Part shown: piece after piece, positions 11,760 to 61,549 of the stretch
How the letters are laid out: each line of letters starts with the position of its first letter
Numbering within the stretch: position 1 is the first letter of the stretch
From: Spirochaetia bacterium
GTDB lineage: Bacteria > Spirochaetota > Spirochaetia > SZUA-6 > Fen-1364
Reading direction: 5' to 3'
Assembly: GCA_035542415.1 (NCBI GenBank)
Contig: DATKLM010000076.1
Span: 8,036-72,035 of the forward strand
Length of the DNA stretch: 64,000 bases
Notes under the pieces: model-generated
The model's input: the letters and a program-made list of their open reading frames with translations, nothing else
Databases searched by the model: none
Told to the model about the DNA's origin: nothing
Made by a program: the position numbers and the translations under genes

Positions 11760-13195
11760 CGCCGGCGCGGAAGCTCCAGGACGCGCTCCACTTCCTGAGC
11801 CGTTGCGTCCGGAAGCGCAGAGCCGCGGTGGCTGGAGAGGATGTCCATCGTTTTTTCCCGGACACGAGCGCGCAGTCCCTTGCTTCCCGAGGCCTGCCAC
11901 GAGTCAAAACGCTGACGGTCGAACAGCGCGGGCTGCCAAAGCTCCCGGAAGTGCCGCACGGTGTGGTCTTCACCGAGGTAGTTGCCGCCCGGCCCCACCG
12001 CGTTGATGACTTCCAGCGCCAGCTCCTCCGCGCCGGTCCCGAAGCCGTCGGTGAAGTGACGCATCATGCCGATCATGTCCGCCGTGAAGACCATCATCTC
12101 GGGAGAGGTGATCAGCCCGGCCTCGAGGTACCCGACGTCGTGGATGAGGTTCGTCCCGCTGAGGAGCGCGGTCTGAACGGAGAACACGGCGTCCGCCGCC
12201 GCCTGCTCGTCAAAAAGAATGCCGTCGCTGTGCCCGGCATATCCCCAGGTGGGCAGCCCGTAGTGCCTGCCCATGCACGCCACGGCCGCGCGCGCGAGCT
12301 GGAACTCGGGAGCGCCGTAGACGCTGATGGAGGTCTTCATGTCCATGTGGTGCAGGCCGCTTCCGTAGAGGAAAGGCGCGCCGGGCCTGCGGCGCTGGTG
12401 CATGACGAGGCTGCTGAGGACCTCGGCGTTTCCCAGCGCGAGGCCGCCGGCAATGGTGACGGGAGCGGTGCTCCCCATCATGGGCGCGGGCGAATGCACG
12501 ATGGGGAGGCCCTCTGCCGCCATGTACAGGAGCTTCTCCGTGGCCGTGTCGCTGTGCTGAAGGGGGGTCGTGGGCTCCGAGTACAGGAGCAGCGTCGGAT
12601 TGAGCCGCAGCTCTTCCATCCCGCCCGCCACGACGGCGGCAGCCGCGGCAATGGCCCGGCAGTCCGCGGCGTCGTTGCAGACGAAGACCACGGGTTTGTC
12701 GCTTCCTTCGATCAGCGCCGCATACTGCCGGCGGTATGCGTTGCCCGTGAAGTCCCGCGGGATTCCCATGGACATGAGAAAACTGATCTCGGGAAGGGCA
12801 TCGGCCAGGCGCACGCAGGCATCGAGGTCCGCGAGCGTGAAGGGCCGCCGGGCGCCGGTGTCCGGGTCGAGGTAGTTGGGGCAGTCGGACCCGGGCCCGA
12901 AGCTTGACTCGCCGGGGGCGAGCCTGACGCCGGGCGCAGAAGAGCCGCGGCGGCAGAGCGTGATGGTGGACGGCGCCTGGTCCAGTGCCCACTCCACCAG
13001 CCCGGCGGGGATGCGTACGAGACTGCCATCCGTCACGGCGCAGCCGGCATCGCGAAGGAGCGCCACGGCCTCCGCGTGGTGCACGCGCACGCCGGTCCTT
13101 CTCAGGATCTCCAGTGACGTCTGGTGGATGGTTTCACATTGCGCCGCGTCAAGCAGCTCCAGGCGGGGAACCGCGCGGGAGGTGTCATTGCTCAC
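11756..13195 (-). CDS. MttB-superfamily (trimethylamine methyltransferase-like) corrinoid-dependent methyltransferase, non-pyrrolysine type
   Basis: 479 aa, colinear by recollection with MttB/MtgB family proteins. The ORF is uninterrupted with no in-frame TAG. Confidence 0.7.
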   Translation of the reverse strand: MSNDTSRAVPRLELLDAAQCETIHQTSLEILRRTGVRVHHAEAVALLRDAGCAVTDGSLVRIPAGLVEWALDQAPSTITLCRRGSSAPGVRLAPGESSFGPGSDCPNYLDPDTGARRPFTLADLDACVRLADALPEISFLMSMGIPRDFTGNAYRRQYAALIEGSDKPVVFVCNDAADCRAIAAAAAVVAGGMEELRLNPTLLLYSEPTTPLQHSDTATEKLLYMAAEGLPIVHSPAPMMGSTAPVTIAGGLALGNAEVLSSLVMHQRRRPGAPFLYGSGLHHMDMKTSISVYGAPEFQLARAAVACMGRHYGLPTWGYAGHSDGILFDEQAAADAVFSVQTALLSGTNLIHDVGYLEAGLITSPEMMVFTADMIGMMRHFTDGFGTGAEELALEVINAVGPGGNYLGEDHTVRHFRELWQPALFDRQRFDSWQASGSKGLRARVREKTMDILSSHRGSALPDATAQEVERVLELPRRR

Positions 13196-16655: not shown

Positions 16656-18398
16656 TCAGGAGGGGGCGCTCCTCTTCTCGATGCGCGCCCATGCATCCTT
16701 CAGTGAAACAGTCCGATTGAAAACGAGCCTCCCCGGCGCAGAGTCGGGGTCGACGCAGAAATAACCGAGCCGTTCGAATTGAAACCTCTCCCCCGGCCTC
16801 GCGTTCGCGAGACCCGGCTCCAGACGCGCTTCACGCGCGGTCTCCAGGGAGGCCGGGTTGATCGTTTCCTTCCAGTCTTTTCCCTCGGGAACCTCCTGGG
16901 GGAACTCCGCGGCGAACAGGTGGTCGTACAACCGTACCTCGGCGGGCACCGAGTGAGCGGCCGAGACCCAGTGGATTGTCGCCTTCACCTTGCGGTTGTC
17001 GGGGGCGTTGCCCCCGCGCGTGGAAGGATCGTAGGTGCAGCGCACTTCCTCAACGGCTCCCGTTGCCGGGTCCTTCATCACGCCGGTGCAGGTGACGATG
17101 TAGCCGTAGCGCAGACGCACCTGAGCTCCCGGCGAGAGACGGTAGTACTTCGGAGGGGGCACTTCCCGGAAGTCGTCCTGCTCGATGTACAGCTCGCCGG
17201 AGAACGGCACCTCTCGCGTACCGGCTGACGGGTCCTCGGGGTTATTCACCGCGGCGAGCTGCTCCACTTTTCCCGCGGGCCAGTCCTCGATCACCAGGCG
17301 AAGCGGCTTGAGGACGGCCATGACGCGCCGGCAGTGTTTGTTGAGGTCTTCCCTCAGGCAGTGCTCCAGGAGAGCGATGTCCACCGTGCTGTCCGCCTTG
17401 GAGACGCCGATGCGGGCCGCGAAGTCCCGCAGGGCTTCCGGCGTATAGCCCCGGCGCCGCAGTCCCACGATGGTCGGCATGCGGGGATCGTCCCAGCCGC
17501 TGACCCGTCCCTCACGCACCAGCTCGAGGAGCCAGCGCTTGCTCAGCACGGTATGGGTGAGATTCAGCCGGGCGAACTCGATCTGCCGGCTGTGGAAGAT
17601 CCCCAGCTGCTCGAGGAACCAGTCATAGAGGGGCCGGTGGATCTCGTACTCGAGGCTGCACAGGGAGTGAGTCACGCCCTCGATTGAATCGGAGAGGGGG
17701 TGCTGGAAGTCGTACATGGGGTAGATGCACCAGGCGTCCCCGGTGCGGTGGTGGGAGGCGTGGCGGATGCGGTACATCACCGGGTCCCGCATGTGGAGGT
17801 TGGGATGCGCCATGTCGATCTTCGCCCGCAGCGTCCGGGCGCCGTCGGGAAACTCACCGGCCCGCATGCGGCGGAACAGGTCGAGGTTCTCCTGCGGCGT
17901 GCGATTGCGGTACGGGCTGTCGCGTCCGGGCGGCGTCACGGTGATGGGGCCCTTGTCCGCCACGTCGGTGCCGCGGTACTCGCGAATCTCCTGCTCATTC
18001 AGGTCGTCCACGTAGGCCTTGCCGGCCATGATGAGCTGTTCGGCCCAGGCGTACAGCTGCTCGAAGTAGTCCGAGGCAAAAAACTCGCGATCTTCCCAGT
18101 CGAAGCCCATCCACTGTACGTCGTCCCGGATCGCATCGACGTACTCCTGCTCCTCCTTCGTCGGATTGGTGTCGTCGAAACGCAGGTTGCACTTCCCGCC
18201 GAACTGTCCGGCGATGCCGAACGAGATGCACATGGCCTTGGCGTGGCCGATATGGAGGTACCCGTTGGGTTCAGGAGGGAAGCGCGTGTGCACGCGGTCG
18301 AACCGGCCGCTTCGGAGATCTTCTTCGATGAAATCCCGGATGAAGTCCGAGGGTGCGGCCTTTTCAGGGGCAGGAACGGAGGACGACGTCTCTGTCAT
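16656..18398 (-). CDS. glnS: Glutaminyl-tRNA synthetase
   Basis: Start at the ATG at 18398 (MTETSSS...). HIGH motif ([14 protein letters not shown]), VLSKR (KMSKS-type) and GlnRS-specific C-terminal beta-barrels. The 271-aa upstream extension in the listed ORF is Arg/Pro-rich and overlaps another gene. Confidence 0.9.
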
Positions 18399-18440
18399 GG
18401 AACTCTCCTTCGGCCGCGCTTCAGGGGCGCGGTTGACGTA

Positions 18441-18469
18441 GTGATAGCCGCCGCGCCGGGCGGTGTCAA
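18441..18469 (-). promoter_or_regulatory. Possible glnS promoter (TTGACA-N17-TATCAC)
   Basis: Perfect -35, weak -10. Followed by a CCGCGC-N7-GCGCGG hairpin and a GGAG SD. Confidence 0.3.
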
Positions 18470-18485
18470 GGAGCGCCACCTGCCC

Positions 18486-18506
18486 CGCGCGCCGCAGCGG
18501 CGCGCG
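18486..18506 (-). terminator. GC-only palindromic hairpin just downstream of the membrane-protein gene (CGCGCGCC-GCUGC-GGCGCGCG)
   Basis: 21-nt near-perfect palindrome with no U-tract. Role as terminator or attenuator is uncertain. Confidence 0.25.
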
Positions 18507-18535
18507 CTCAGGCCGCTCCTGCTCCCCGATTGCCC

Positions 18536-19180
18536 TCAGGCCGCCAGGGGAAGCGGCGCCGGGATGTGCGGTGAGCGACGTGGGTGCGGGTCCTCGTCCG
18601 CGCGGCGGCGGCGCGGCTCGGGAATGCGGCGGTACATGAGGAGGAACAGGCCGTAGATCACGGCGTTCTGCAGCGCGCCGGCAACGGCGATGGCAAGCGG
18701 CTCGCTGAGGAACGACACCCCGGCGATGCTCAGCGCGGAGCCGGCGAGCGACCCGAGCGCGTCCGCCATCCCGTAGCGGCGGTCGAATCCCGCCCGGTTC
18801 GCGCGGTACTTCTGCTCCTTCATCTTCTGCAGCAGATACACGACGGACGCCGAAAACACGCCCACCACCGCCATGGATGCGAGGTAGTACACGGCGAGGT
18901 CGACGGCGGCGACCAGCGCGACGGCAACCCCCGCGACGAGCTCGACGATCATGACGACGGGAAGCACGGCGTAGAGGCGGGAGAACAGCCGGCGGTTCCC
19001 CAGCGCCGCCCCAATGAGGAGCGGAAACACCGAGGACATGAACGAGCCGACGGCGATGACGCGCGCGTCGAGATGGGCGAGGATCACGCTGATGTACAGG
19101 GGATTCAGGAAGCCGTAGAAGAAGCTCGCAATGAATCCGCTGAGGACAAAAATATCCAGGAATGACTTCAGTTTTTTCAT
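18536..19180 (-). CDS. Hypothetical integral membrane protein (about 6 TM)
   Basis: Start at the ATG at 19180 ([11 protein letters not shown]...), preceded by a GGAGG SD. Hydrophobic throughout with an Arg-rich C-terminal tail. Confidence 0.6.
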
Positions 19181-19398
19181 GGTCCACCTCCGTGGCATGC
19201 AGCAGGCGCACGAGAGGCGGATCGAGCCCCCCGCGCGCTAGGTCAACCTACCCCCAGGGTCGTCGGTGTGTTCCATTGAACCCTCCTGAGCGCACAGTGC
19301 TCGGGCTTGTCCGCGGTCAGTGCGCGGAACAGGCCCAGAGAAAAGGATAGTCCGGTTTCTCAGTATCGTCAATTTCCCAGGAATTGGGTTCCCGGGTC

Positions 19399-34930: not shown

Positions 34931-35473
34931 ATGGCCCCGGCTGAAATCGATGGGAAGTATTTTCTCTCCTACGAGGAAATCCACGATACGATCCGCGCGC
35001 TCTCACGGAAGATCATGGACGACGGTTTCGACCCGGATGTCATCGTGGCAATCGGGACAGGCGGATTCATCCCTGCCCGGATCCTCAAGACGTTCCTCAA
35101 AAAGCCGATCCTGACCGTCGGCATCTCCTACTACGGTCCCGACAACAAGCCGGCAAGGACCCCGCACACAATCCAGTGGATCGACGAGGTGGAAAAAAAG
35201 CTCCAGGGTAAAAGGGTGCTCCTTGTCGACGAGGTCGACGATTCCCGCGTAACCCTGGAATACTGCCTGCGGGAGCTGCTGCGTCACGGCGCGCAGGAGA
35301 TCGCCATCGCCGTGTTGCACAACAAGGACAAGGAGAAGCGGGGGAAGATTCCCGAAGAGATCCGCCGCTACTACGTTGGTCTGGAACTGGAGGACCGCTG
35401 GATCTGCTACCCCTGGGACGCGCTGGACATCACGGAGCACTCCCGCAAGGCGGACCAGCCCTCTACGGTCTGA
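34931..35473 (+). CDS. Purine phosphoribosyltransferase (hypoxanthine/xanthine-guanine PRT-like)
   Basis: PRPP-binding motif VLLVDEVDDSRVT and IVAIGTGGFIPARIL are present, 180 aa. Confidence 0.75.
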   Translation: MAPAEIDGKYFLSYEEIHDTIRALSRKIMDDGFDPDVIVAIGTGGFIPARILKTFLKKPILTVGISYYGPDNKPARTPHTIQWIDEVEKKLQGKRVLLVDEVDDSRVTLEYCLRELLRHGAQEIAIAVLHNKDKEKRGKIPEEIRRYYVGLELEDRWICYPWDALDITEHSRKADQPSTV

Positions 35474-36737
35474 CCCTCTTTCGATCCCGCGGGAACAACG
35501 TCGCCTCCTTGACGCTGCCGAGACCGAGGATCTTCTGCGTGAGCCGCTCCAATCCGATTGCGAAACCGCCGTGGGGCGGGCAGCCGTAGCGGAAGATGGA
35601 CAGGTAGTCGGCAAGGCCGGCGGGGTCCAGCCCGAACGTCTTCGCGTTTTCCACGAGCATGTCGTACTGGTTGATGCGCATGCCCCCGGAGGTCACCTCC
35701 AGGCCGCGGAACAGCAGATCGAACGCACGGGTCTTGTTGTTGTCCGCCGGGAACGTGTAGAACGGCCGGGACTTGCGGGGGTAGCCGTGGACAAAGGCAG
35801 CATCGATGCCGGCGGTCTTCTGCGCCCAATCGCAGAGCGTTCTCTCTCCCTCGGGAGTGATCTCGAACGCTTTCCTGCCGGTCTCCTTCGACACGATCTC
35901 CCGGGCTTCGTCATGCGACACGCGGGGGATACGGACGCATGCTTCAGGATCCGGCACCGACGCCTTCCACGCCTCGAGGTCTTTTCCGTTCGCCTCCCGG
36001 ACGACCGTGAAGATCGAGGCGAGGATCCGGGTCTCCAGGTCCATGAGCTCCTGCTCGCTCTCGATGAAAGCCATCTCCACGTCCAGGGACACGAACTCGT
36101 TGATGTGCCGGGGCGTGTCGTGCTTCTCCGCCCGGTAGGCCGGACCGATCTCGAACACGCGCTCCAGCCCGGAGGCGATCATGGCCTGCTTGTACAGCTG
36201 CGGGGACTGCGTCAGGTACACTCTCGTGTCGAAATATTCCACGGCGAAGAGGCCGGTGCCTCCCTCGGTTCCCGTGCCGATGAGCTTGGAAGTCTTGATC
36301 TCGCTGAAGCCTTCGCTTCTCATGTGCTCCGCGAATCCTCGGAGGATAGAAGACTGCACGCGGAAAATCGACAGGATGGACGGGTTGCGGACGGAGATCA
36401 TGCGGTTGTCAAGGATCGACTCCAGGGACGTCTTGCCCGGCTCCTGGTTCACCGGAAACGGAAGATCGACGGCTGCCGCGGAGAGCACCTCGAGCTTCTC
36501 GACGCGCACCTCAACGCCGCCGGGAGCCTTCTCATTAGCGGAAGCCGTGCCTTCCACGCGGATGACGGACTCCACGGTGACATCGGGCTTCTCGCTGAAG
36601 ACGAGCTGAGCGCTCCCGCTGCGGTCCCGCAGGACCACGAAGGAGACCTTTCCCAGGTCCCTGATGCGGTGCACCCAGCCGCTCAGGCTGACGGCGGTGC
36701 CCACCTTGCCGGGGAGCTCAGAGGCAAGCGTCCGCAT
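35463..36737 (-). CDS. aspS: Aspartyl-tRNA synthetase, archaeal/eukaryal type (probably non-discriminating)
   Basis: Start at the ATG at 36737 (MRTLASEL...) with a GGAG SD, 20 nt inside the 3' end of gatB. Class II motifs are FEIGPAYRAEKHDTPRHINEFVSLDVEM and GCPPHGGFAIGLERL...LFPRDRKRVRP. Confidence 0.85.
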   Translation of the reverse strand: MRTLASELPGKVGTAVSLSGWVHRIRDLGKVSFVVLRDRSGSAQLVFSEKPDVTVESVIRVEGTASANEKAPGGVEVRVEKLEVLSAAAVDLPFPVNQEPGKTSLESILDNRMISVRNPSILSIFRVQSSILRGFAEHMRSEGFSEIKTSKLIGTGTEGGTGLFAVEYFDTRVYLTQSPQLYKQAMIASGLERVFEIGPAYRAEKHDTPRHINEFVSLDVEMAFIESEQELMDLETRILASIFTVVREANGKDLEAWKASVPDPEACVRIPRVSHDEAREIVSKETGRKAFEITPEGERTLCDWAQKTAGIDAAFVHGYPRKSRPFYTFPADNNKTRAFDLLFRGLEVTSGGMRINQYDMLVENAKTFGLDPAGLADYLSIFRYGCPPHGGFAIGLERLTQKILGLGSVKEATLFPRDRKRVRP

Positions 36738-39132
36738 TTCCCTGCTCCATTCTGGCCAGCATCTCCTCCTCATTCTCGGAGAATGCCGCGCATACGACGA
36801 GCTTCGTCCACGCGGATTCGGTGGTGAGCGGACCCATGGGGATGGCGCCCTCGCGCCACAGCTCGTGAGAGCTCGCGTAGCGGGAGAAGTCCACGATCCC
36901 TTCCTGCTGGGAGGTACAGAAGAAGCGCACCCCCTTTTCCCGGCCGGCGAGGAAGGCGCGGCGAAGCGAATACGGGGAGTCCCGGAGGTTCGCGGTTCCT
37001 GTGTCGTAGAGTTCGAGCACGAAGTTCTTCACGCCCCGATCCATGAGGTTTACGAGGTGGTCCCCCCTCATGCCCGGGTACACGCGGATGATGAGCGTGG
37101 AATTGATGGCGGATTCGAAGCGCGCCTGCAGCTCCTGGCGGTCACCCGCCAGCGGGAGGTCCTCGAACAGGGGGGGCGCCGAGTGACACGGCTTGGAAAG
37201 GTTCCAGTTGCGAAAACCGTCCGATGCCATGCGCTCGAACTTGAGGTTCACGGGGGAAAAAACCTTTCCGGCGAACACGACGTACACCCCGGGCGCTTCT
37301 TCCGCTGCCGCCTGAACCGCGCGGCGCAGGGTGGGGATGGCATCGCTTCCCGGCTTCCCGGGCATGGACAGGGACGCCGTCAGCACGACGGGTACCGGCG
37401 GCTTCGGGAAGAGCCAGAACAGAAGCGAGGCCGTGTACGCGAGGGTGTCGGTGCCGTGCGTGACGACGATCCCGGCCGCTCGCCCGCCGCGCAGGTGCTC
37501 GTCGATACCGGCAGCCAGTCTCGCCCAGTCCGCGGGCGTGATCTCCTCACTGAGGATCCGGCCGACTTCTCCCTCCTCGAAGGCGATCCGACGATCGAAC
37601 GTGCCTTCGGCCTCGAGCTGCCGCATGATCTCCGAGGGATCCCCGGCAACCACGTCCCCCTGCGCGGATTCCTTTCCGACGATCGCGCCGCCCAGGGACA
37701 GGATCTGGATCACGGAAACAGCGAGCTTCCTGCCCACCAGGGACTGCACAAGCGACGGATCCGCGCGACCCGAGGTCTCCCGCATGATCTCCCCGATGAG
37801 GAACGTAACCAGGCGGCGGTCTCCTCCACGGATGGAAGCGACGATTCCGGCGTTGGCCTGCATGACTTTCTCGATGGAACGTTCCAGGACAGCGGGGTCG
37901 GTGATCTGCTCCCAGTCTTTTTCACGGATGATCGCAAGCGGATCCTTGTTCTCTGCGAAAACCCTCTCCAATACTGCCTTGGCGATCTTGCCGTGGATCC
38001 GGCGGGAGGACAGAAGACCCAGGAGCTCGGCAAACCGGGCCGCGCTCAGCGGGCTTTGGGCAAGCGATACGGAGGCCCTGTTGAGGTGCTTCTTCACGTC
38101 CGCGGCGAGCCAGAGCGCCGCGCTCTGCGGATCAGCACCCAGCCGAACCGCCTCCTCGAAATAGTCCGCCGTTGCCTTCTCCTCGCAGATGAAGTCAGCC
38201 TGGTCCTCCGAAAGGGAAAACCTCTCCATGAGCCGCCTGCGGCGCGCCTGGGGCAGCTCCACGAGTGAGGCTTCCACGCCGTCGAGAAAGGCCTTGCCGG
38301 GGACGAAGGGGGGCAGGTCAGGCTCGGGGAAGTAGCGGTAGTCCGACGAGGATTCCTTGGTGCGCATCCCCTCGGTGACGTCTCGGTTCTCGTTCCAGAG
38401 GCGCGTCTCCTGCGTGACGCTTCCTCCCCGCTCGAGGATCTCGGTCTGGCGCTCGATCTCGTACGTAATCGCCTTCCGGACGAACTTGAAGGAGTTGAGG
38501 TTCTTCACCTCGACCTTGCTCCCCAGCCCCTTCCCCTCGGGATTGACCGAGACGTTCGCGTCGCAGCGAAGCGACCCTTCCTCCATGTTGCCGTCGCAGA
38601 CACCGAGGTAGCGCACCATCCGGCGGAGCTCCTGGAGGAATACTTCCGCTTCCTCTCCGACCTCCATATCGGGCTGCGTCACGATCTCCAGCAGGGGTGT
38701 TCCTGTTCTATTGAAATCCAGCAGCGTAACGTCGCCGGCATGGATCATTTTGCCGGCGTCCTCTTCCAGGTGGACCTCCCGGATCCGGACGCGCTTTTTC
38801 CTCTTCCGGATCTCGATTTCCACCCATCCGTCGGTTCCCAGCGGGGAACGGAACTGCGAGATCTGGTAGTTCTTGGGAAGGTCGGGGTAGAAGTAGTTCT
38901 TCCTTTCGAAAAGTGTGGACGCGGCGAGCGCGCAGTTCAAGGCCCGGGCCACAAGGTATCCCATGCGGATGGCTTCCCCGTTCAGAGCAGGAAGCACCCC
39001 CGGATATCCCATGCAGACGGGGCATACGTTCGTGTTCGGTTCGTCGCCGAAGGCTGCCCGGCAGCCGCAGAAGACCTTGGAGCGCGTCAGGAGCTGCGTG
39101 TGGACTTCAAGCCCCAGGTATGATGCGTACAC
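36718..39132 (-). CDS. gatB: GatB (Asp/Glu-tRNA amidotransferase subunit B) fused to a C-terminal type I asparaginase / GatD-like domain
   Basis: 804 aa, GTG start. Residues 1 to about 478 are full GatB (GLEVHTQL...CPVCMGYPG...YFPEPDLPP...YqeY-like tail). Residues from about 480 align to asparaginase (ILSLGGAIVG, THGTDTLAYTASLL, VVLTAS, SDA, LKFERMASDGF). Confidence 0.85.
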   Translation of the reverse strand: MYASYLGLEVHTQLLTRSKVFCGCRAAFGDEPNTNVCPVCMGYPGVLPALNGEAIRMGYLVARALNCALAASTLFERKNYFYPDLPKNYQISQFRSPLGTDGWVEIEIRKRKKRVRIREVHLEEDAGKMIHAGDVTLLDFNRTGTPLLEIVTQPDMEVGEEAEVFLQELRRMVRYLGVCDGNMEEGSLRCDANVSVNPEGKGLGSKVEVKNLNSFKFVRKAITYEIERQTEILERGGSVTQETRLWNENRDVTEGMRTKESSSDYRYFPEPDLPPFVPGKAFLDGVEASLVELPQARRRRLMERFSLSEDQADFICEEKATADYFEEAVRLGADPQSAALWLAADVKKHLNRASVSLAQSPLSAARFAELLGLLSSRRIHGKIAKAVLERVFAENKDPLAIIREKDWEQITDPAVLERSIEKVMQANAGIVASIRGGDRRLVTFLIGEIMRETSGRADPSLVQSLVGRKLAVSVIQILSLGGAIVGKESAQGDVVAGDPSEIMRQLEAEGTFDRRIAFEEGEVGRILSEEITPADWARLAAGIDEHLRGGRAAGIVVTHGTDTLAYTASLLFWLFPKPPVPVVLTASLSMPGKPGSDAIPTLRRAVQAAAEEAPGVYVVFAGKVFSPVNLKFERMASDGFRNWNLSKPCHSAPPLFEDLPLAGDRQELQARFESAINSTLIIRVYPGMRGDHLVNLMDRGVKNFVLELYDTGTANLRDSPYSLRRAFLAGREKGVRFFCTSQQEGIVDFSRYASSHELWREGAIPMGPLTTESAWTKLVVCAAFSENEEEMLARMEQGNADACL

Positions 39133-41087: not shown

Positions 41088-42509
41088 GTGGCAAAAAAGG
41101 ACTTCCCGAAGATTCATTTCTACGATCAGGATCTCGTTGCTCTCTATGACGAGACGTGGCTCCTGATCAAGGACTTCTGGAAGAAGGGCACGTCGGCCAA
41201 CGGCTTTCACAGCAGGTTCTTCAACCACCCCGCAAGCACGCGCATCAACCAGTTTGACGCATGCTTCTCCTCTTTTTTCCTCGTGTACTCCAACAGGATC
41301 TACCCCGTGCTGTCCGCGCTGGACAACTTCTACGGCAAGCAGGAGGAAAACGGCGCCATCCGCGGCGAGTACCGGGAAGCAGACGGGAGGCCGGCCCACG
41401 CCAAGGACAACCCGAGGGGAGTTCTCCCGCCGCTGTTCGCGTGGGCGGAATACAACATCTACCACAAGCTCGGAGTCAAGAAGCGCATCCGGGAAGTCCT
41501 GCCCGTGCTGGAGAAGTACTACCGCTGGATAGAATCCACCTTCCGCCGGGAGAATGGCCTGTACTCCGTCCCCCTGTCCGCCACCATGATGGAAAACTCT
41601 CCGCGGGACGGCATGGAGTACCCCATCGACTTCAACTCCCAGATGGCGCTCTCCGCGCTGTACATGGCGGAGCTCGCCGACATCATCAACGACAAGGAAA
41701 CGAACTACGCGTACAAGAAGGCCTACTTCTCGCTGAAGACCAAGATCAGCTCTCTCATGTGGGACGAGAAGGATGGCTTCTACTACGACCTCGACGCCTC
41801 CGAAAAGCGCCTGAAGGTGAAAACCATCGCTTCGTTCTGGCCTCTCATCGCGGAGATCCCCAACGAGGCCCGGGGAGAAAGGCTCATCGAGCACCTCGTG
41901 GATCCGCACGAGTTCGGCATTGAGAACCCCTTCCCCACGCTCGCCGTCAAGGACAAGAGGTTCGATCCCATGGGCATGGGTTTCCGCGGCTCCGTGTACC
42001 CGCCGTTCAACTACATGGTGATCAAGGGGCTGGAGAAGTACAAGCGCAACGACCTCGCGCGGGAGTTCGCCATCCGTCATCTCTACCACGTGCTGGACGG
42101 CCTGTATACCGGCAACGGGAAGAAAGGCTCGCTGTACGAGGCGTATGCCCCCCACACGGAGGGGCCGGCCCGGTGGCCGGGAAAAAAGAGCTTCCCCCGC
42201 ACGATGTACGTGCCATACACCGCCCTTACGACAGTGTCGCTGATGCTGGAGAACATCATCGGCCTGGACATCTCGCTTCCCCGCAAGACGGTGGACTGGA
42301 CCATCCCCACGCTGGAGCTCATGGGCATCAAGGACCTGGCGCTGAAAAGGAATCTCATCTCGATCCTCAGCGCGAAGAGCAGCCGGGGCTGGGAAGTGCA
42401 CCTGGAAAGCGAGAAGCTGTACTATCTCACGATCGACCTTTTCGGAGCGCGCAGCAAGACGCTTCCCATTCCGTCGGGAAAGTGCTCGATTCTTGTAGAC
42501 AAGTTGTAG
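41088..42509 (+). CDS. Glycoside hydrolase, (alpha/alpha)6-barrel, GH63/GH37-like (trehalase / MGH1-like family)
   Basis: 473 aa. PPLFAWAEYNIY, ENSPRDG, FYYDLD, SFWPLIA, FRGSVYPPFNYMVIKGL and LYEAY resemble the GH63/trehalase-type catalytic barrel (from memory). Confidence 0.6.
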   Translation: MAKKDFPKIHFYDQDLVALYDETWLLIKDFWKKGTSANGFHSRFFNHPASTRINQFDACFSSFFLVYSNRIYPVLSALDNFYGKQEENGAIRGEYREADGRPAHAKDNPRGVLPPLFAWAEYNIYHKLGVKKRIREVLPVLEKYYRWIESTFRRENGLYSVPLSATMMENSPRDGMEYPIDFNSQMALSALYMAELADIINDKETNYAYKKAYFSLKTKISSLMWDEKDGFYYDLDASEKRLKVKTIASFWPLIAEIPNEARGERLIEHLVDPHEFGIENPFPTLAVKDKRFDPMGMGFRGSVYPPFNYMVIKGLEKYKRNDLAREFAIRHLYHVLDGLYTGNGKKGSLYEAYAPHTEGPARWPGKKSFPRTMYVPYTALTTVSLMLENIIGLDISLPRKTVDWTIPTLELMGIKDLALKRNLISILSAKSSRGWEVHLESEKLYYLTIDLFGARSKTLPIPSGKCSILVDKL

Positions 42510-45203: not shown

Positions 45204-45204
45204 A

Positions 45205-45291
45205 CGGAGAGAGTGGGATTCGAACCCACGGTACCCTTGCGAGTACACACGCCTTCCAAGCGTGCACCTTAGACCGCTCGGTCATCTCTCC
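45205..45291 (-). tRNA. tRNA-Ser (anticodon GGA)
   Basis: Cloverleaf read by eye: acceptor GGAGAGA/UCUCUCC, anticodon stem CACGC/GCGUG, loop UUGGAAG, long variable arm, T-loop GGUUCGAAUCC. No encoded CCA. Confidence 0.9.
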
Positions 45292-45384
45292 AAGCCCATG
45301 GACGGGCGAAGGGCGGATGCATGCGCACAGGGAGGTACAAGCAGACGCCCAAGGCACCAACACGGGTCAAAACCAGAACACTCG

Positions 45385-45471
45385 CGGAGAGAGTGGGATT
45401 CGAACCCACGGAGCCGCAAGCGGCTCAACGGTTTTCGAGACCGCCCGATTCGACCGCTCTCGCATCTCTCC
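45385..45471 (-). tRNA. tRNA-Ser (anticodon CGA)
   Basis: Acceptor GGAGAGA/UCUCUCC, anticodon stem GCGGU/ACCGU, loop CUCGAAA, long variable arm, GGUUCGAAUCC T-loop. Confidence 0.9.
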
Positions 45472-45481
45472 GAATCTCAAA

Positions 45482-45516
45482 GGCGGCCGCCTGCATTCCC
45501 CCTGCAAGCGGCCGCC
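45482..45516 (-). terminator. 14-bp GC-rich hairpin (two GCGGCCGC motifs) between tRNA-Arg and tRNA-Ser(CGA), followed by UUUGAGAUU on the minus strand
   Basis: GGCGGCCGCUUGCA-GGGGGAA-UGCAGGCGGCCGCC with one G.U pair. It may be an internal attenuator, terminator or processing signal. Confidence 0.35.
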
Positions 45517-45523
45517 CTGTCTC

Positions 45524-45598
45524 CGTGCCCAAGAGGATTCGAACCTCCGACCTTTAGATCCGCAGTCTAATGCTCTATCCAGGCTGAGCTATGGGCAC
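45524..45598 (-). tRNA. tRNA-Arg (anticodon GCG)
   Basis: Acceptor GUGCCCA/UGGGCAC, D-arm GCUC/GAGC, anticodon stem UUAGA/UCUAA, loop CUGCGGA, short variable loop, T-arm GGAGG/CCUCU. Confidence 0.85.
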
Positions 45599-45673
45599 AC
45601 ACCAGCTCTGTTTTTCGCGAATCGCTGGCTACGGGCTCGCTGTCGGGCTTCCCTGCCCTCGCTCGCCCTCGTA

Positions 45674-45761
<88 letters not shown>

Positions 45762-45854
45762 AGTTCCAGTAACCCCTCGACAGGCACCCCCGGCGTTCGG
45801 GAGAAACGACCTCTATTCCTCTCTCATCGTCAAGGAAGGCATGGGAAATGTGAC

Positions 45855-45941
45855 CGGAGAGGGAGGGATTCGAACCCCCGGAACCGCAAGCGGCTCAACG
45901 GTTTTCAAGACCGCCTCCTTCGACCACTCGGACACCTCTCC
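45855..45941 (-). tRNA. tRNA-Ser (anticodon UGA)
   Basis: Acceptor GGAGAGG/CCUCUCC, anticodon stem GCGGU/ACCGU, loop CUUGAAA, long variable arm. Confidence 0.9.
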
Positions 45942-52868: not shown

Positions 52869-55349
52869 CTATGCTCCGTCCGAGCGGGAGTCTGTACCTT
52901 CTGTGGCCCCTTCCCCGTTCTGTTCTTCCTTGACGACCCGCGCCACGCCGACAACCACGTCAGGCTTCGTGATGTTGACGATCCGAACGCCCATGGCGGT
53001 TTTTCCCAGCGTGGCGATTTCCGACAGGCGGAGCTTCAGCGTGTTGCCCTGGGAGGTGATGCAGACAAGGTCATCCTTGTCGCTCACGGACAGGACGCCG
53101 ACTACTTCACCCGTCTTCTCCGTGGCCTTGTAGCAGATCTGGCCGCCGGTTCCCCGGCCGTGCGGTGAGAAGTTGTCGTACTCCGTGCGCTTGCCGAACC
53201 CGAACTCGCTCAGCAGGAGCATCTGCTCCCCCTTACGGACCATGGCCACGCCGGCAAGCTCATCTTTATCCGAGAGCCTGATGCCCCGAACACCGTGCGA
53301 GGCCCGGCCCATGGCGCGCACCGCTTCTTCATGGAACCTCAGCGCGTTGCCCTTGCGGGTAACCAGCACGACCTCATCCGAGCCTGACGTGAGCAGGGCC
53401 GTCACGAGCCCGTCTCCCGGGTCGAGCTTGATAGCGACAATCCCGCGGGTCTTGGCGTTTGCGAACTCCGAAATTGCCACCTTCTTGACGACGCCCTGCC
53501 GGGTTGCCATGAGGACGAACTTCTCATCAGAGAAGTTCCTCAGGCTCACGACCGCGGTGATCTCCTCTTCACTTCCCAGGGAGAGAAGCACCTTGATGCT
53601 CTGACCCTTGGCCTGCCTGCTGCTCTCCGGTATCTCATGGACCTTTACCCAGTACGACTTGCCCTGGTTGGTGATGAACAGCACAAAGGCATGGGTGGAG
53701 GCCACGAAGAACTGCTCGATGAAGTCGTCCTCCTTGAGCAGCGCGGACGAGGAACCCTTGCCCCCGCGTCCCTGCCTCCGGTACGCGCTCACGGGGATGC
53801 GCTTGATGTAGCCGCGGTTGGAGATCAGGAGGGCCATGTCCTCTTCCGCGATGAGGTCTTCCACGTTGATCTCTTCCGCTTCCTCGTTGATGATCTCCGT
53901 TCTTCGGTCATCCCCGAACCGGGTGGAAATGTCCGCCGTCTCTTCCTTCACGACGCCGAAGATCTTCTGCGCGCTTGAAAGGAGGTCTTTCAGCTTTTCG
54001 ATGAGGGCCAGGACCTCTTCCAGCTCCTCCATCACCTTCTTCACCTCGAGGCTCGTCAGGCGCTGGAGGCGCATGTCGAGGATGGCCTGGGCCTGCTTCT
54101 CCGACAGGGAGAAGCGTTCCATGAGGCCCGTCCGGGCGCTCGCCGTATCCGCGGACTTCTTGATGAGCGCGATCACCTCATCGATGTTCTCCAGGGCGAT
54201 CTTCAGTCCCTGCAGGATGTGCGCCCGCTCCTCCGCCCGCGCAAGCTCGTAGCGCGTCCTGCGGGTCACGACTTCCTTGCGGTGCTCGATGAAGTGCTCG
54301 AGGATCTCCTTGAGGGAAAGAGTCTTCGGCAACCCCTTCACAAGGGCAAGGTTGATGACGCCGAAGGCAATCTGCATCTGCGTATGGGCAAAGAGCTGGT
54401 TGAGGATCACCTTGGGCGACGTACCCTTGCGGAGGTCGATGACGATCCGCATGCCGTGACGGTCGGATTCGTCGTTGAGATCCACGATCCCATCGATTTT
54501 CTTTTCCTTGACGAGGTCGGCGATCCGCACGATGAGGTTGGCCTTGTTCACCTGGTACGGGATCTCCGTAATGATGATGGAGTCCTTGCCCGAGCTCGAG
54601 GTCTCCACGGTCACCTTGGCCCGCACGATGATCCTGCCCCGGCCCGTCGTGTAGGCATCCCGGATTCCCTTTCGACCCAGGATGATCCCCCCCGTGGGGA
54701 AATCAGGGCCCTGGACGATCTTCATCAGCTCTTCAGCGGTGGTCGAGGGAGCGTCGATGAGCGTGATGATTGCCTCGCAGATCTCGCGGAGATTCTGCGG
54801 CGGGATATTCGTGGCCATGCCCACGGCGATGCCGCTTGCGCCGTTGGCGGCAAGGAAGGGAAACGCTCCCGGAAGAACGAGGGGCTCCTGCTGGCTTCCG
54901 TCGTAGTTCGGGCCGAAGTCGACGGTCTCCTTGTCGATATCGCGGAGCATCTCCTCCGCGACGGGGTTCATCCGGGCCTCGGTATACCGGACGGCCGCGG
55001 GAGGATCACCGTCGATGGAACCGAAGTTGCCCTGCCCGTCCACCACGGGGTAGCGCATGTTGAAGTCCTGCGCGAGGCGGACGAGAGATTCATAGATGGC
55101 CATGTCGCCGTGGGGATGATACTTCCCCAGGACGTCGCCGGTGATGCGGGCGCACTTCTTGTAAGGCCGATCCGAGCGCAGGCCCATTTCGTTCATTCCG
55201 AAGAGGATCCTGCGGTGGACAGGCTTCAGGCCGTCGCGGACGTCCGGCAACGCGCGCGACACGATGACGGACATTGCGTAGTTGAGATAGGAAGTGCGGA
55301 CCTCCTCCTCGATGGGGAGGGCTATTGTCCGGGATTTCGCGTCTGACAT
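52869..55349 (-). CDS. gyrA: DNA gyrase subunit A
   Basis: 826 aa. [24 protein letters not shown], the active-site Tyr region ([10 protein letters not shown]) and C-terminal beta-pinwheel repeats. Confidence 0.97.
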
Positions 55350-55361
55350 TCTGGGCTGCCC

Positions 55362-57308
<1,947 letters not shown>

Positions 57309-57722: not shown

Positions 57723-59090
57723 ATGGAGGGAGGGAAAAGGGGCTACGAGGCCTTCTGGAAGGAGGCCCTTGCTGACATTTCCGCTGACCTTTCCGAGCAG
57801 GAGTTCGCCACGTGGTTCCGCGGCATCGAGTTCACGGGCAGCGGAGACTCCCATATCCTGCTCTCCGCCCCCTCCTCGTTCATCAAGGACCAGTTCAGCC
57901 AGCGCTACCTCGGCAAACTGGAAGAAAAACTGACGGATCTTGCAGGTCAGAAGCTCTCCATCAGGTTCTCCATCCAGAAAAAGACTTCCTCCCGCGGCCC
58001 TCATGAGGAGTCCCCGCGCGGCCAGAGGTCGGAGGAGGGCGGGACCAGGAAGCGCCAGCATCCCAATCTGAACAAGGAATACACCTTCGAGCGGTTCATC
58101 ATCGGAGAATCCAACTCTTTTGCGGCCAACGCGGCGCTCGCAATTGCCCGAAACCCGGGAACCGGCTACAACCCCTGCCTGATCTATGGCGGCGTCGGGC
58201 TGGGCAAGACCCATCTCATCCAGGCCATCGGCAACTCCGTCTACCGCGAGTTCCCCGACCTGAAGGTCGGCTACGTGACCGCGGAAGCATTCGCGAACGA
58301 GTTCATCCTCTCCATCCAGAAGAAAACAGGCCACCAGTTCAAGAACCGCTACCGCTCGGTGGACGTGCTCCTCATCGATGACGTGCACTTCCTGGAAGGC
58401 AAGGAAGGGACCCAGGAAGAACTGTTCCACACGTTCAACGCCCTCTACGATGCCAACAAGCAGATGGTCTTCACCTCTGACAGGCCGGTGTCGGAGATCC
58501 GCAGCCTCTCCGACCGGCTGCGCAGCAGGTTCGAGCGCGGACTGAACGTCGACCTGCAGCCCCCGAACTACGAAACGAGAATCGCAATCCTCAACCGCAA
58601 GATCGAGGAGAAGAAGGTCAAGATTCCGGACGAGGTCGTGCAGTTGATCTGCCGCAACGTGAACACGAACGTCCGCGATCTGGAAAAGGCCCTCACCAAG
58701 CTCATCGCGTACGCCGAGCTCGTGAACAAGCACATCACGCTGGAGATCTCCCGCCAGCAGCTGAAAGACTTCTTCACCCAGCCCAATCAGAAGAATATCA
58801 CGATCGAGCTGATCCAGAAGATCGTGGGAGACTACTTCGGCCTTTCCTACAAGGACCTGCGGGGCAAGAGGAGGACCAAGGCGGTGGCTTTCCCCCGGCA
58901 GGTGGCCATGTACCTGTCCCGAGAGCTCACCGAGTACTCCACCACGGAGGTCGGGGCTGAGTTCGGAGGCCGGGACCACACCACGGTCATGCACGCCTGC
59001 CAGAAGATCGAAGACCGGATGAAGCTCGATCCGAACCTCGAGCCGACCATGCAGGCTCTTGTCAAGAAGATCAAGGAAAACAATGCCTGA
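57723..59090 (+). CDS. dnaA: Chromosomal replication initiator protein DnaA
   Basis: 455 aa. LNKEYTFERFIIGESN, Walker A GGVGLGKTHL, IDDVHFL and the C-terminal DNA-binding helix (DHTTVMHACQKI). Confidence 0.97.
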   Translation: MEGGKRGYEAFWKEALADISADLSEQEFATWFRGIEFTGSGDSHILLSAPSSFIKDQFSQRYLGKLEEKLTDLAGQKLSIRFSIQKKTSSRGPHEESPRGQRSEEGGTRKRQHPNLNKEYTFERFIIGESNSFAANAALAIARNPGTGYNPCLIYGGVGLGKTHLIQAIGNSVYREFPDLKVGYVTAEAFANEFILSIQKKTGHQFKNRYRSVDVLLIDDVHFLEGKEGTQEELFHTFNALYDANKQMVFTSDRPVSEIRSLSDRLRSRFERGLNVDLQPPNYETRIAILNRKIEEKKVKIPDEVVQLICRNVNTNVRDLEKALTKLIAYAELVNKHITLEISRQQLKDFFTQPNQKNITIELIQKIVGDYFGLSYKDLRGKRRTKAVAFPRQVAMYLSRELTEYSTTEVGAEFGGRDHTTVMHACQKIEDRMKLDPNLEPTMQALVKKIKENNA

Positions 59091-59360: not shown

Positions 59361-60467
59361 ATGAAGTTCACGTGTTCCCGGGACGACATCCTCAGGGAGA
59401 TCTCCATTGCACAGGAGGTCATCTCCTCGAAGAACTCCCTTTCCGTGCTCTCTAACGTGCTCCTCACCGTGAGCAAGAAGGAGCTGTCGCTCCACGCCAC
59501 GGATCTGAAGGTCGGGTTCGAGACGAGCCTTCCCGTGGAGACCGTGCAGGAAGGAACCACGACGGCCTTCTGTGACAAGCTCCAGGGGATCCTTCGGTCG
59601 CTGCCGGAAGGAGACGTCGAGCTGGAGCAGATCGACGCGACAATGCTGCGCATCCGGCCGCTGTCGAAGAAGATCGACTTTCAGCTTCGCTGTATCCCGT
59701 CCGACAAGTACCCCGAGCTGGCCCGTGTCGCCGACTCCCAGTACTTCGATTTCCCCCAGAAAGACTTCATCGACATGGTGTCCAAGACCCTGTTCGCCGT
59801 TTCGGACGATGAGACGCGGTACTTCATGAACGGCATCTTCCTGGAAAAGCGGGACGATAACCTGATCATGGTGGCAACGGACGGACGGCGTCTTGCCTTC
59901 ATTTCCCGGCGGATCCCCATCCGCATGGAGAACCTCAAGGGCATCATCCTGCCGCCGAAGATTCTCACCATCGTGCGCAAGCTGTCTTCGGGAGAAGGGA
60001 GCCTCTCCCTCGCGTTGACGGACAAGAACGTTTTCATCCGCATGGGAGCGACGAACCTCTCGTCCAATCTCATCGACGGCCAGTTCCCCGATTACCGCCG
60101 GGTCATCCCTGACGCGCAGAGGTTCCGCGCCGTCGTGGAGCGCCGGGCCCTTGAAGACGCCTTGCGACGTGTGTCCCTCCTCGTCGAGCAGAAGTCACGC
60201 AAAGTAGTCTTTTCCCTGGCCGGTGACGTTCTCACGATCCTCTCCCGGGAGAGCGAGCTCGGCATTGCCTCGGAGGAAGTCCCCTGCGAATACGAAGGGC
60301 CCGAAATGTCCCTTGCTGTGAACTGCCTCTACATGAGCGAGCCACTGCGTGAGCTCTCCTGCGACACGGTGAGCCTGGAGTTCAGCGACGTGAACAAGGC
60401 CATCACGCTCAAGCCTCAGCCGGAGGACGGCTACCTCAACATCATCATGCCCATGCAGCTGGATTGA
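59361..60467 (+). CDS. dnaN: DNA polymerase III beta sliding clamp
   Basis: 368 aa with the typical three-domain pattern (MKFTCSRDDIL..., ATDGRRLA, LIDGQFPDYRRVIP, PMQL C-terminus). Confidence 0.95.
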   Translation: MKFTCSRDDILREISIAQEVISSKNSLSVLSNVLLTVSKKELSLHATDLKVGFETSLPVETVQEGTTTAFCDKLQGILRSLPEGDVELEQIDATMLRIRPLSKKIDFQLRCIPSDKYPELARVADSQYFDFPQKDFIDMVSKTLFAVSDDETRYFMNGIFLEKRDDNLIMVATDGRRLAFISRRIPIRMENLKGIILPPKILTIVRKLSSGEGSLSLALTDKNVFIRMGATNLSSNLIDGQFPDYRRVIPDAQRFRAVVERRALEDALRRVSLLVEQKSRKVVFSLAGDVLTILSRESELGIASEEVPCEYEGPEMSLAVNCLYMSEPLRELSCDTVSLEFSDVNKAITLKPQPEDGYLNIIMPMQLD

Positions 60468-61549
60468 TGGGCTTTGAGAGGCTGCGGTTCTTCAACTTCA
60501 GGAACCTGAGGGACGGAGAGCTCCGCCTCGGCGCGCGGGAGATCTTTCTGGTCGGGGAAAACGGCCAGGGCAAAACGAACCTCATCGAGGCGGTGCATCT
60601 TCTCTGCCGCGGCTCGTCGTTCCGGGAAAAAAGGGAGGCGGCCCTCCCGCGTGACCCCGGGGCCCCGATGGGTCTTGCGGGCCAGTATGGCGCCGCCGGC
60701 GGCGCCCTCGCGGATATGTCGATGCAGGTCTTCCCCGACAGGAAAAAAGAGCTGCGCGTGAACGGAAAGCAGGTCGCGGATCGCCGGGAGCTGCTCTCCG
60801 AGGTCCTCTGCGTCTGCTTCGTTCAACAGGACATGGATTTCGTGACCGGCGCCCCGGAGGACCGGCGGCACTTCTTTGACCAGACCCTCACGCTCTGCGA
60901 TCCATCGTTTCTCGATTCGCTGCGCGGCTACCGCCAGGTGCTGCGGTCGCGCAACTTCTGTCTCAGGGCGCGCCAGGGGGACATCCTGGACGCCTACGAC
61001 GCGCAGCTTGCCTCTTTTGGTCTCGCCCTGCAGCGCCGTCGCGCGGAGCTCGTCCGCGAGTTCAACGGCGTGTTCGGCCCGCTGTATCGGGAGATCAGCG
61101 GCGCCGGGGAAGAGGTACTCATCCGGTATCTTCCCTCCTGGCAGGGACTGGACGACGTGGAGTCCGCGCTGGCGAACCTCGCCGCCCGCCGCGGAAGCGA
61201 TCTGGCCCTGGGGACCACAGGCACCGGGCCTCACCGTGACGCCTACGCGTTCATCTGCGCGGGCCGCGACTATTCCCACTTCGGGTCCACGGGACAGCTG
61301 CGCCTGTGCGCCCTTGCGCTGCGGATCGCGCAGGCCCGCTACCTCACGGAGCGTACCGGTCGCCTTCCCGTTCTCCTGCTGGACGACGTTCTCCTCGAGC
61401 TGGACCAGGGGAGAAAGAAGGCCATCGTCGAGCGGTTCCCCGGCTACGAGCAGGCTTTCTTCACGTTCCTGCCCGACGAGACGTACGACTCGTACCGGAC
61501 GGAAGAGACCCTGGTGCTGCGGGTCGCCGCCGGGGATTTCGCGCGATGA
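60467..61549 (+). CDS. recF: DNA replication and repair protein RecF
   Basis: FRNL...LVGENGQGKTNLIEA Walker A, signature region and LLLDDVLLELD Walker B. ATG at 60467 overlaps the dnaN TGA (TGATG). A TTG at 60464 is an alternative start. Confidence 0.9.
   Translation: MGFERLRFFNFRNLRDGELRLGAREIFLVGENGQGKTNLIEAVHLLCRGSSFREKREAALPRDPGAPMGLAGQYGAAGGALADMSMQVFPDRKKELRVNGKQVADRRELLSEVLCVCFVQQDMDFVTGAPEDRRHFFDQTLTLCDPSFLDSLRGYRQVLRSRNFCLRARQGDILDAYDAQLASFGLALQRRRAELVREFNGVFGPLYREISGAGEEVLIRYLPSWQGLDDVESALANLAARRGSDLALGTTGTGPHRDAYAFICAGRDYSHFGSTGQLRLCALALRIAQARYLTERTGRLPVLLLDDVLLELDQGRKKAIVERFPGYEQAFFTFLPDETYDSYRTEETLVLRVAAGDFAR

Follow-up and report, generated by a model that had tools for sequence, protein, structure and literature searches.

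A spirochaete GatB fused to a probable pseudo-asparaginase domain and encoded with gatC, gatA and aspS

In the archaeal amidotransferase GatDE, an asparaginase-fold module is physically joined to a GatB/GatE-family kinase/transamidase that ends in a YqeY-like tail. GatD is a separate, active subunit that carries the domain PF18195 and replaces GatA. It runs the same chemistry as the asparaginases, with an active Thr nucleophile and a Thr-Lys-Asp triad, and its homodimer nucleates the alpha2-beta2 GatDE complex (PMC2330236). Here we analysed a gatB gene in a 64,000-nucleotide stretch of a Spirochaetia genome (assembly GCA_035542415.1, contig DATKLM010000076.1, positions 8,036 to 72,035; hereafter the window), whose 804-residue product continues in frame into a type I asparaginase-fold domain. 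Unlike GatD, this module is covalently attached, at the C-terminal end of the tail, and lacks PF18195, the nucleophilic Thr and the activating Tyr. Its partner is a canonical GatB, and GatA coexists with it.

Among asparaginases, the type I L-asparaginases of Thermococcales (P. furiosus 4q0m, T. kodakarensis 5ot0 and P. horikoshii 1wls) are colinear with the window domain over both lobes and share its Ser, Thr-Asp and Lys positions. However, these enzymes are free-standing and active and have TGGTI and a loop Tyr, whereas the window domain reads GGAI, has no such Tyr and has C-lobe motifs of its own. The same substitution at the same position is found in the T13A mutant of the B. licheniformis enzyme (PDB ID 7c8x) and the T19A mutant of the guinea-pig enzyme (PDB ID 5dnc), which have L-Asn in the pocket according to the titles of the PDB entries. 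These are laboratory mutants of active enzymes, whereas the state of the window domain is natural and ancient and includes the loss of the Tyr.

With respect to the pathway, GatCAB and an archaeal-type non-discriminating aspartyl-tRNA synthetase (AspRS) serve Asn synthesis in Thermus and Deinococcus despite the presence of glutaminyl-tRNA synthetase (GlnRS) (PMC4206432). The Asn-transamidosome of Thermus thermophilus and Deinococcus radiodurans thus has the same components as the window, and its task is probably the same, but no appended GatB domain has been described for it, whereas the window has the four genes in one overlapping operon and an extra module. Partners and domains of tRNA-dependent amidation do fuse, as in AspRS-GatC (NF009460) and the GlnRS-YqeY of D. 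radiodurans (NF011291). These fusions join known functional partners, whereas the window protein adds an apparently inactivated metabolic-enzyme fold without a known role in the pathway.

We found no description of a GatB-asparaginase fusion, a pseudo-asparaginase or a spirochaete transamidosome in the full-text literature searched, whose coverage leaves out many subscription-journal papers. Within that coverage, the impression of an earlier note, made from the window sequence alone, that the architecture had not been characterised was borne out. In public databases the architecture appears only under the automatic names 'GatB', 'asparaginase domain-containing protein' and 'glutamyl-tRNA amidotransferase'.

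The fusion protein and its operon

The open reading frame (ORF) is predicted to encode a complete, canonical GatB followed by a C-terminal type I asparaginase-fold domain. Each of its four Pfam domains exceeds the curated cut-off (Table 1), and the NCBIfam profiles agree, with scores of 606 bits against the GatB equivalog NF004012 (cut-off 338) and 541 bits against TIGR00133 (cut-off 315). Aquifex GatB (3h0l_B) matches the GatB half with 489 bits and with its motifs aligned. The cradle motifs LEVH (residues 8-11), EEDAGK (123-128), LEIV (148-151), RCDAN (189-193) and YRYFPEPD (265-272) are all there, and the conserved metal-ligand His and two Glu residues are present. The tail that follows is of the YqeY-like type, which in GatB and GatE touches the tRNA's D-loop (PMC2330236). 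In the AlphaFold2 model of the full-length protein (predicted local distance difference test score, pLDDT, 85; predicted template modelling score, pTM, 0.56), the individual domains are confident; the final helix of GatB extends to residue 470 and the added domain has its first strand from residue 474, which suggests that there is effectively no linker between them. Both the in-frame fusion to a complete GatB and the direct junction had been proposed in the earlier note, and both hold.

The assignment of the added domain to the two-lobe asparaginase fold is secure. The domain modelled alone gave a confident structure (pLDDT 90, pTM 0.91), and its best structural matches in Foldseek were the Thermococcales type I L-asparaginases, with template modelling (TM) scores of 0.80-0.82, compared with 0.75-0.76 for GatD. 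A phmmer search revealed P. horikoshii L-asparaginase (1wls) as the best PDB sequence match, with an E-value of 3.9e-30. The N-lobe contains the motifs GGAIV (481-485), LSEE (527-530), HGTDT (559-563) and NLKFER (629-634). The C-lobe has highly conserved motifs that are specific to the family, LELYDTGTA (706-714) and CTSQQEG (739-745); LELYDTGTA, FFCTSQQEG and SHELWREGAxPMGxLTTES are near-invariant among the family members.

In asparaginases, acylation is the work of triad I (Thr12-Tyr25-Glu283) and deacylation that of triad II (Thr89-Asp90-Lys162); the nucleophilic Thr has been described as critical, and the human T19A mutant has no activity (PMC8948990). In the phmmer alignment, SLGGAIVG of the window protein lies opposite GMGGTIAS of 1wls. 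The nucleophilic Thr is replaced by Ala483, at exactly the codon that the earlier note had pointed to. The activating loop Tyr is gone as well, since the Tyr of ERGYES in 1wls is opposite the Asp of SAQGDVV in the window protein. Two of the three triad I residues, the Thr nucleophile and the Tyr, are therefore missing from the window domain, while the Ser-Glu and Thr-Asp positions are kept. The earlier note had also stated that the second Thr-Asp pair and the Lys were retained. This stands for the pair, which lies in HGTDT; for the Lys it is only probable, because Lys631 faces the catalytic Lys of 1wls in the phmmer alignment but is shifted by one column in the MAFFT alignment. The score against the type I asparaginase model TIGR00519 is 117.6 bits, below the subfamily threshold of 260.5. 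Considering that the acylating triad has neither the Thr nucleophile (Ala483) nor the Tyr, the roughly 330 C-terminal residues very likely form a type I asparaginase fold that no longer functions as an amidohydrolase, i.e., a non-catalytic pseudoenzyme module.

The fusion gene is the third gene in the series gatC-gatA-fusion-aspS. gatC and gatA overlap by 4 nucleotides, gatA is separated from the fusion gene by 3 nucleotides, and the fusion gene and aspS overlap by 20 nucleotides, an arrangement that indicates a translationally coupled operon. The NF003483 alignment begins at residue 13 of the long aspS ORF, and the likely start of aspS is the ATG at 36735-36737 (MRTLASEL...), with GGAG upstream, inside the end of the gatB gene. 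GatA looks intact: its signature motifs GVKDN (residue 68), GGSSGGS (143) and GGSIR (167) were all read from the translation, in agreement with the earlier statement that this bacterial GatCAB still has its own amidase subunit. Judging from the GlnRS gene in the neighbourhood and from the non-discriminating AspRS, the main task of the operon is probably the conversion of Asp-tRNA(Asn) into Asn-tRNA(Asn). In the GlnRS ORF the glnS model sets in only at about residue 280-307, and Pfam finds no match to the first ~300 residues. Either this front part is a new N-terminal extension, or the ORF was called too long in GC-rich DNA and truly starts further downstream. Scans for tRNA genes and for promoters and terminators around the operon gave nothing informative.

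Table 1. Positions of the features discussed (window coordinates unless a locus is named; subfamily B is described in the text)
Feature	Position	Strand	Remarks
gatC, first gene of the operon, 91 aa	40557..40832	-	Pfam GatC, 59.7 bits
gatA, amidase-type glutaminase subunit, 474 aa	39136..40560	-	Pfam Amidase, 440 bits
gatB-asparaginase fusion ORF, 804 aa	36718..39132	-	GTG start
GatB catalytic (cradle) domain	38290..39117	-	Residues 6-281; Pfam GatB_N, 379 bits
GatB YqeY-like tail	37723..38166	-	Residues 323-470; Pfam GatB_Yqey, 132 bits
Asparaginase-fold N-lobe	37207..37710	-	Residues 475-642; Pfam Asparaginase, 113 bits (cut-off 22.5); 1wls alignment, AlphaFold2, Foldseek
Ala483 codon GCG	37684..37686	-	Corresponds to the nucleophile Thr12 of E. 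coli asparaginase II
HGTDT motif	37444..37458	-	Residues 559-563; Thr561-Asp562 is the kept second catalytic pair
Lys631 in NLKFER	37240..37242	-	Probably corresponds to Lys162, the catalytic Lys of E. coli asparaginase II
Asparaginase-fold C-lobe	36760..37092	-	Residues 681-791; Pfam Asparaginase_C, 39 bits (cut-off 34.6)
aspS, archaeal-type non-discriminating AspRS	35463..36737	-	NCBIfam NF003483 'aspartate--tRNA(Asn) ligase', 510 bits (cut-off 353)
GlnRS, 851-aa ORF	16656..19211	-	glnS model, 679 bits (cut-off 426)
MGH1-like glycosidase gene	41088-42509		Flanks the fusion locus
Subfamily B locus, Breznakiella homolactica CP067089	L016:4498-7002
Subfamily B locus, T. phagedenis GL638105	L083:8001-10406
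Further subfamily B loci	L003-L006, L008, L009

Distribution, states and ancestry of the fused family

The fusion is recurrent. In a whole-protein search, full-length fusions of 794-822 residues formed at least 120 clusters (90% identity). NCBI and JGI call them simply 'GatB', and some of their contigs are 3.2 Mb, 676 kb and 598 kb long. The identical in-frame junction was found in the translated sequences of nine GTDB species genomes. The fragmentary matches of the first search were mostly proteins cut off by contig ends. A profile search of 1.84 billion representative proteins showed a clear score gap between the fused family and stand-alone proteins. The fused family scores above 200 bits and comprises about 35 clusters at 50% identity, with full-length members of 789-817 residues and shorter ones that look like fragments; the stand-alone proteins (320-390 residues) start at 169 bits, and those that were read have the canonical TGGTI and HGTDT. 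One contig with a spirochaete-type gatC-gatA-fusion-aspS operon and many frameshifts (L010, CAVVRF010000006.1) belongs to a metagenome-assembled genome (MAG) labelled 'uncultured Alphaproteobacteria', and is probably a mis-binned or mis-labelled long-read contig.

The Thr-to-Ala change is conserved across the family. Our residue census comprised 246 family sequences, 199 of which cover the nucleophile column, and there we counted Ala in 187, Ser in seven, Thr in four and Arg in one. By comparison, the nucleophilic Thr is present in 110 of 115 stand-alone asparaginases and GatD proteins from the same searches. No conserved Tyr was found in the nucleophile-activating loop across the fused-family alignment. 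Of 223 family sequences, 202 have HGTDT, which is invariant in family alignments A1 and A2; Ser-Glu is kept in 214 of 216. Thus the family-wide reach of both the fusion and the substitution, which the earlier note had raised as a question from a single sequence, could be documented.

Cross-tabulation of 144 full-length fusions revealed three states. The 116 sequences of subfamily A, to which the window protein belongs, have canonical GatB motifs, Ala at the nucleophile position and Thr at the second site, and the operon is gatC-gatA-fusion-aspS at every locus that could be examined (L001, L002, L007 and L010). One subfamily A protein, P0185 (804 residues, 73% identical to the window protein), reads GGTI instead of GGAI and is otherwise canonical; reversion or sequence variation might explain this. 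A basal group (P0259, P0265-P0267 and also P0262) likewise has a canonical GatB, but its second site reads HGLDT or HGADT and the Lys is lost too. The same operon was found at both basal loci examined, those of P0259 and P0262.

The two basal loci have further genes directly upstream of gatC. In the P0259 operon, a 655-residue protein (L086:4276-6243; also L087:4044-6011), whose gene overlaps gatC, has asparaginase motifs in permuted order, with HGTDT at about residue 183 before TGGTI at about residue 305; both threonines are present, and its N-terminal stretch looks like a receiver domain. In the P0259 lineage, where the fused domain is fully dead, this protein might serve as its active partner. 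No counterpart was found in the window or at the other loci. At the P0262 locus, a stand-alone response-regulator receiver gene (L084:5942-6307, 121 residues) precedes gatC-gatA-fusion-aspS, which hints that the operon is regulated in that lineage.

The third state, subfamily B, is found in Treponematales, namely T. phagedenis, T. vincentii F0403, Breznakiella homolactica and MAGs of Termitinemataceae and Treponemataceae, with at least 288 clusters at E <= 1e-60. Its GatB half shows conserved decay. LEVH reads LEVR (His to Arg; 112 of 112 sequences), LEIV has its Glu changed to Arg (xRIR) in almost all of them, RCNA[YHF] (Asp to Asn) is found in 116 of 116 and RNLNS in 115 of 116, and YFYPD and YRYFPEPD are lost. 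Mutation to Ala of any of the equivalent Mg2+ ligands in GatE abolishes both kinase and transamidase activity (PMC2330236). Because these ligands are essential, subfamily B is almost certainly not an amidotransferase, although its members are labelled GatB or 'asparaginase domain-containing protein' in the databases. At the subfamily B locus gatC, gatA and aspS are gone, while the YqeY tail and the asparaginase-fold domain are kept, so the domain has persisted after the amidotransferase chemistry was lost. An MGH1-like glycosidase gene lies beside the fusion gene in the window, in L006, in T. phagedenis and on the P0262 contig, which indicates that the fusion locus is orthologous across the subfamilies. 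In Table S1 of PMC4206432, T. pallidum is listed with GatCAB, AsnRS and AsnA and without GlnRS, if the column order is as we deduced it from the T. thermophilus row.

At the nucleophile position, subfamily B has Ala in 63-66 proteins, Thr in 36-37 and Ser in 11, and the residue switches even between close relatives. The loop Tyr is absent in 36 of the 37 Thr-bearing proteins. Such switching among Ala, Thr and Ser would fit a need for a small residue in a tight turn rather than for a nucleophile.

The asparaginase-fold domain appears to be under strong purifying selection. A set of 11 sequences with 44-67% identity to the window protein has 62 invariant columns. Mean pairwise identity of GatB_N is 0.83 within subfamily A, 0.46 within subfamily B and 0.34 between A and B. 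The corresponding values are 0.63, 0.39 and 0.38 for the YqeY tail, 0.64, 0.51 and 0.46 for the asparaginase N-lobe, and 0.75, 0.53 and 0.50 for the C-lobe. The domain is thus more conserved than the tRNA-binding tail in subfamily A, and it is the best-conserved part of the protein where the GatB chemistry has been lost. Purifying selection of this strength implies that the domain has some non-catalytic function.

To place the fused family, a distance (neighbour-joining) tree was calculated from 320 columns. The fused family was monophyletic in 50 of 60 bootstraps, which points to a single origin of the fusion, in Spirochaetia. Clades with canonical GatB are basal within it, and subfamily A groups with subfamily B in 56 of 60 bootstraps. 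This makes a functioning GatB fusion within the operon the ancestral state and subfamily B a derived one. The tree did not resolve the sister of the fused family among GatD, the classical type I enzymes and the nearest stand-alone relatives, and, being rooted on GatD, it does not suffice to place the family outside GatD.

The earlier note had called the domain GatD-like and the protein a hybrid of GatCAB and GatDE, a description that we could not uphold. The GatD models NF003217 and TIGR02153 score 110 bits (cut-off 310) and 109 bits (cut-off 324) on the window domain. The type I asparaginase model scores about the same (118 against 110 bits), and both kinds of model remain far under their family cut-offs. 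A Pfam search did not find the GatD N-terminal domain PF18195 in the window protein, while it was found in the GatD matches P0097 and P0105-P0107. The TM scores are nearer to the asparaginases, and the module sits on the tRNA-binding tail, not on the cradle. Specific descent from GatD is thus unsupported by the model scores, the structure search or the tree.

The nearest stand-alone relatives (P0268-P0285, e.g., L081:436-1548 and L082:4056-5153) form an uncharacterised clade of asparaginase-like proteins. Like the fused family they contain the motifs ELYxSGTAC and TSQQ, and NxAGEI, a GatD-like motif, closes the sequence. We looked for gatB- or gatE-like neighbours beside P0268 and P0272, but these lie on short contigs and the context was uninformative.

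Possible roles of the added domain

Our best explanation is that the fusion ORF encodes the working GatB of the organism, the predicted kinase/transamidase subunit of GatCAB, and that it carries a selected pseudo-asparaginase which most likely is an assembly or dimerisation module and may also bind a ligand. We hold this explanation as a whole at slightly less than an even chance, and the specific role in dimerisation or assembly, which we infer by analogy with GatD, is somewhat more doubtful still. To our knowledge, the asparaginase-fold proteins characterised so far form homodimers. The GatB-attached domain may pair in the same way, as GatD does, and the domain dimer would then link two GatCAB units through the ends of their tRNA-binding tails. 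Such a paired GatCAB would match the dimeric AspRS and its two tRNAs in the transamidosome. The remnant of the pocket that has been kept (Ser-Glu, Thr-Asp and Lys) may bind Asn, Asp or Gln without turnover, and the nucleophile Thr-to-Ala mutants with bound L-Asn (PDB IDs 7c8x and 5dnc) offer a precedent for such non-hydrolytic binding.

Several observations weigh against this explanation. Treponematales keep the domain as the best-conserved part although gatCA and aspS have been lost. A domain that served only transamidosome assembly should have disappeared with these genes, and its survival there points to a role that is not wholly tied to the amidotransferase. Most members have Ser-Glu and HGTDT unchanged, which goes beyond the needs of a pure dimerisation module. 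The nucleophilic Thr is present in P0185 and in about one-third of the Treponema-type set, so that some lineages may be active. The Asn-specific role of the operon is itself deduced from its gene content and from analogy. In addition, with a pTM of 0.56, the full-length model is uninformative about the placement of the asparaginase-fold domain relative to GatB.

The persistence of the domain in Treponematales suggests a different possibility, namely that the YqeY tail and the dead asparaginase fold form a new self-sufficient module, perhaps a tRNA- or amino-acid-linked regulator or chaperone for which the amidotransferase chemistry is not needed and which would make the Treponematales protein a double pseudoenzyme. 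We consider this unlikely, though worth serious attention. Its extension to the window lineage, where a tRNA-linked binding or regulatory module would ride on an active GatB, seems less probable again. This possibility is favoured by the orthologous Treponematales locus, which has the same MGH1-like glycosidase neighbour but none of gatC, gatA and aspS, and by the replacements in the GatB half (His to Arg, Glu to Arg, Asp to Asn), which are conserved rather than random and affect positions whose counterparts among the Mg2+ ligands of GatE are essential (PMC2330236). Moreover, the protein is kept in at least 288 clusters that include cultured T. phagedenis, T. vincentii and Breznakiella, with the asparaginase-like domain as its best-conserved part. 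However, the function of the Treponema-type proteins may be a later neofunctionalisation.

About as improbable is a role as a sensor, in which the dead pocket would bind free Asn, Asp or Gln and shift the position of the GatB tail or its affinity for tRNA, giving feedback that would adjust tRNA-dependent Asn synthesis to the pool of free amino acids. Ser-Glu (LSEE), Thr-Asp (HGTDT) and the Lys are near-invariant in subfamilies A and B, where only the acylating Thr and the Tyr are lost, and crystals of engineered Thr-to-Ala mutants contain Asn. Allosteric regulation by Asn can occur in type I asparaginases, as in E. coli AnsA (R240 and T162; PMC8948990). The operon is probably Asn-specific, and sensing could remain useful once the amidotransferase chemistry was lost. 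Nevertheless, HGLDT and the absence of the Lys in the basal clade (P0259 and P0265-P0267), which has a canonical GatB and the same operon, show that the family as a whole has not conserved the pocket.

The least likely function is residual amidohydrolase activity, in which Thr561-Asp562-Lys631 would use water or another nucleophile to hydrolyse Asn, Gln or another amide or ester, possibly as a GatD-like second source of ammonia. The earlier note had listed such an ammonia source among its options, next to a scaffold and a sensor, and we now regard it, unlike the other two, as disfavoured. Triad II is kept in most members, a direct-displacement mechanism has been argued for some asparaginases (PMC8948990), some members have Thr or Ser at the nucleophile position, and in one related operon the 655-residue protein with both threonines could complete a heterodimer. 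However, Ala predominates at the nucleophile position of the family (187 of 199), Ala, Ser and Thr switch there, and the activating Tyr is absent. The basal clade additionally has neither the second Thr nor the Lys. The 655-residue partner is missing from the window and the other loci, and the window operon encodes an intact GatA. In known GatCAB structures, the GatB tail is far from the GatB active site. The domain sits on this distal tRNA-binding tail, and AlphaFold2 shows no docked arrangement (pTM 0.56). Finally, the human T19A enzyme is inactive (PMC8948990).

That adjacent gatB and asparaginase genes were joined through an assembly or sequencing error has a negligible probability: its sole hint is the short gene calls on some long contigs, where tblastn matches are split between frames (L001 and L010), probably in frameshifted long-read MAGs, and it is ruled out by the recurrence of the same in-frame junction in the nine GTDB species genomes and of the full-length fusion in at least 120 independent clusters from many samples and assemblers, complete genomes included.

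Genomic surroundings and significance

Further away from the operon, the window contains gyrA (52869-55349, minus strand), gyrB (55362-57269, minus strand) and dnaA (57723-59090, plus strand), which places it next to the region of the chromosomal replication origin. Two more plus-strand ORFs lie past dnaA (59361-60467 and 60464-61549). Five tRNA genes are located at 45204-45941 on the minus strand (Ser-GGA, Ser-CGA, Arg-GCG, Ser-GCT and Ser-TGA), and there is no tRNA-Asn gene, the place of the U1-A72 identity element for GatCAB, within the window. A homologue of the MttB-family trimethylamine methyltransferases (11756-13195, minus strand) adjoins a molybdopterin oxidoreductase gene (9579-11759, plus strand).

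GatCAB and the transamidosome are among the best-studied parts of translation, yet no accessory domain of GatB appears in the literature searched. The current annotations of the Treponema-type proteins, which include those of cultured, host-associated species, are misleading, because both catalytic centres have been lost. The same proteins are an experimentally accessible system, since genomes and cultures are available, and P0185, a close relative with GGTI, would provide activity assays with a natural control. Dimerisation of GatCAB or docking of AspRS by the domain would represent, for mesophiles, a new way of building a stable transamidosome. A domain that senses Asn, Asp or Gln would provide the first known case of direct metabolite control of tRNA-dependent amino-acid synthesis. 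If instead the tail and the domain form a self-sufficient module, which in Treponematales would be a double pseudoenzyme, the family would constitute a new class of pseudoenzymes derived from the translation apparatus.

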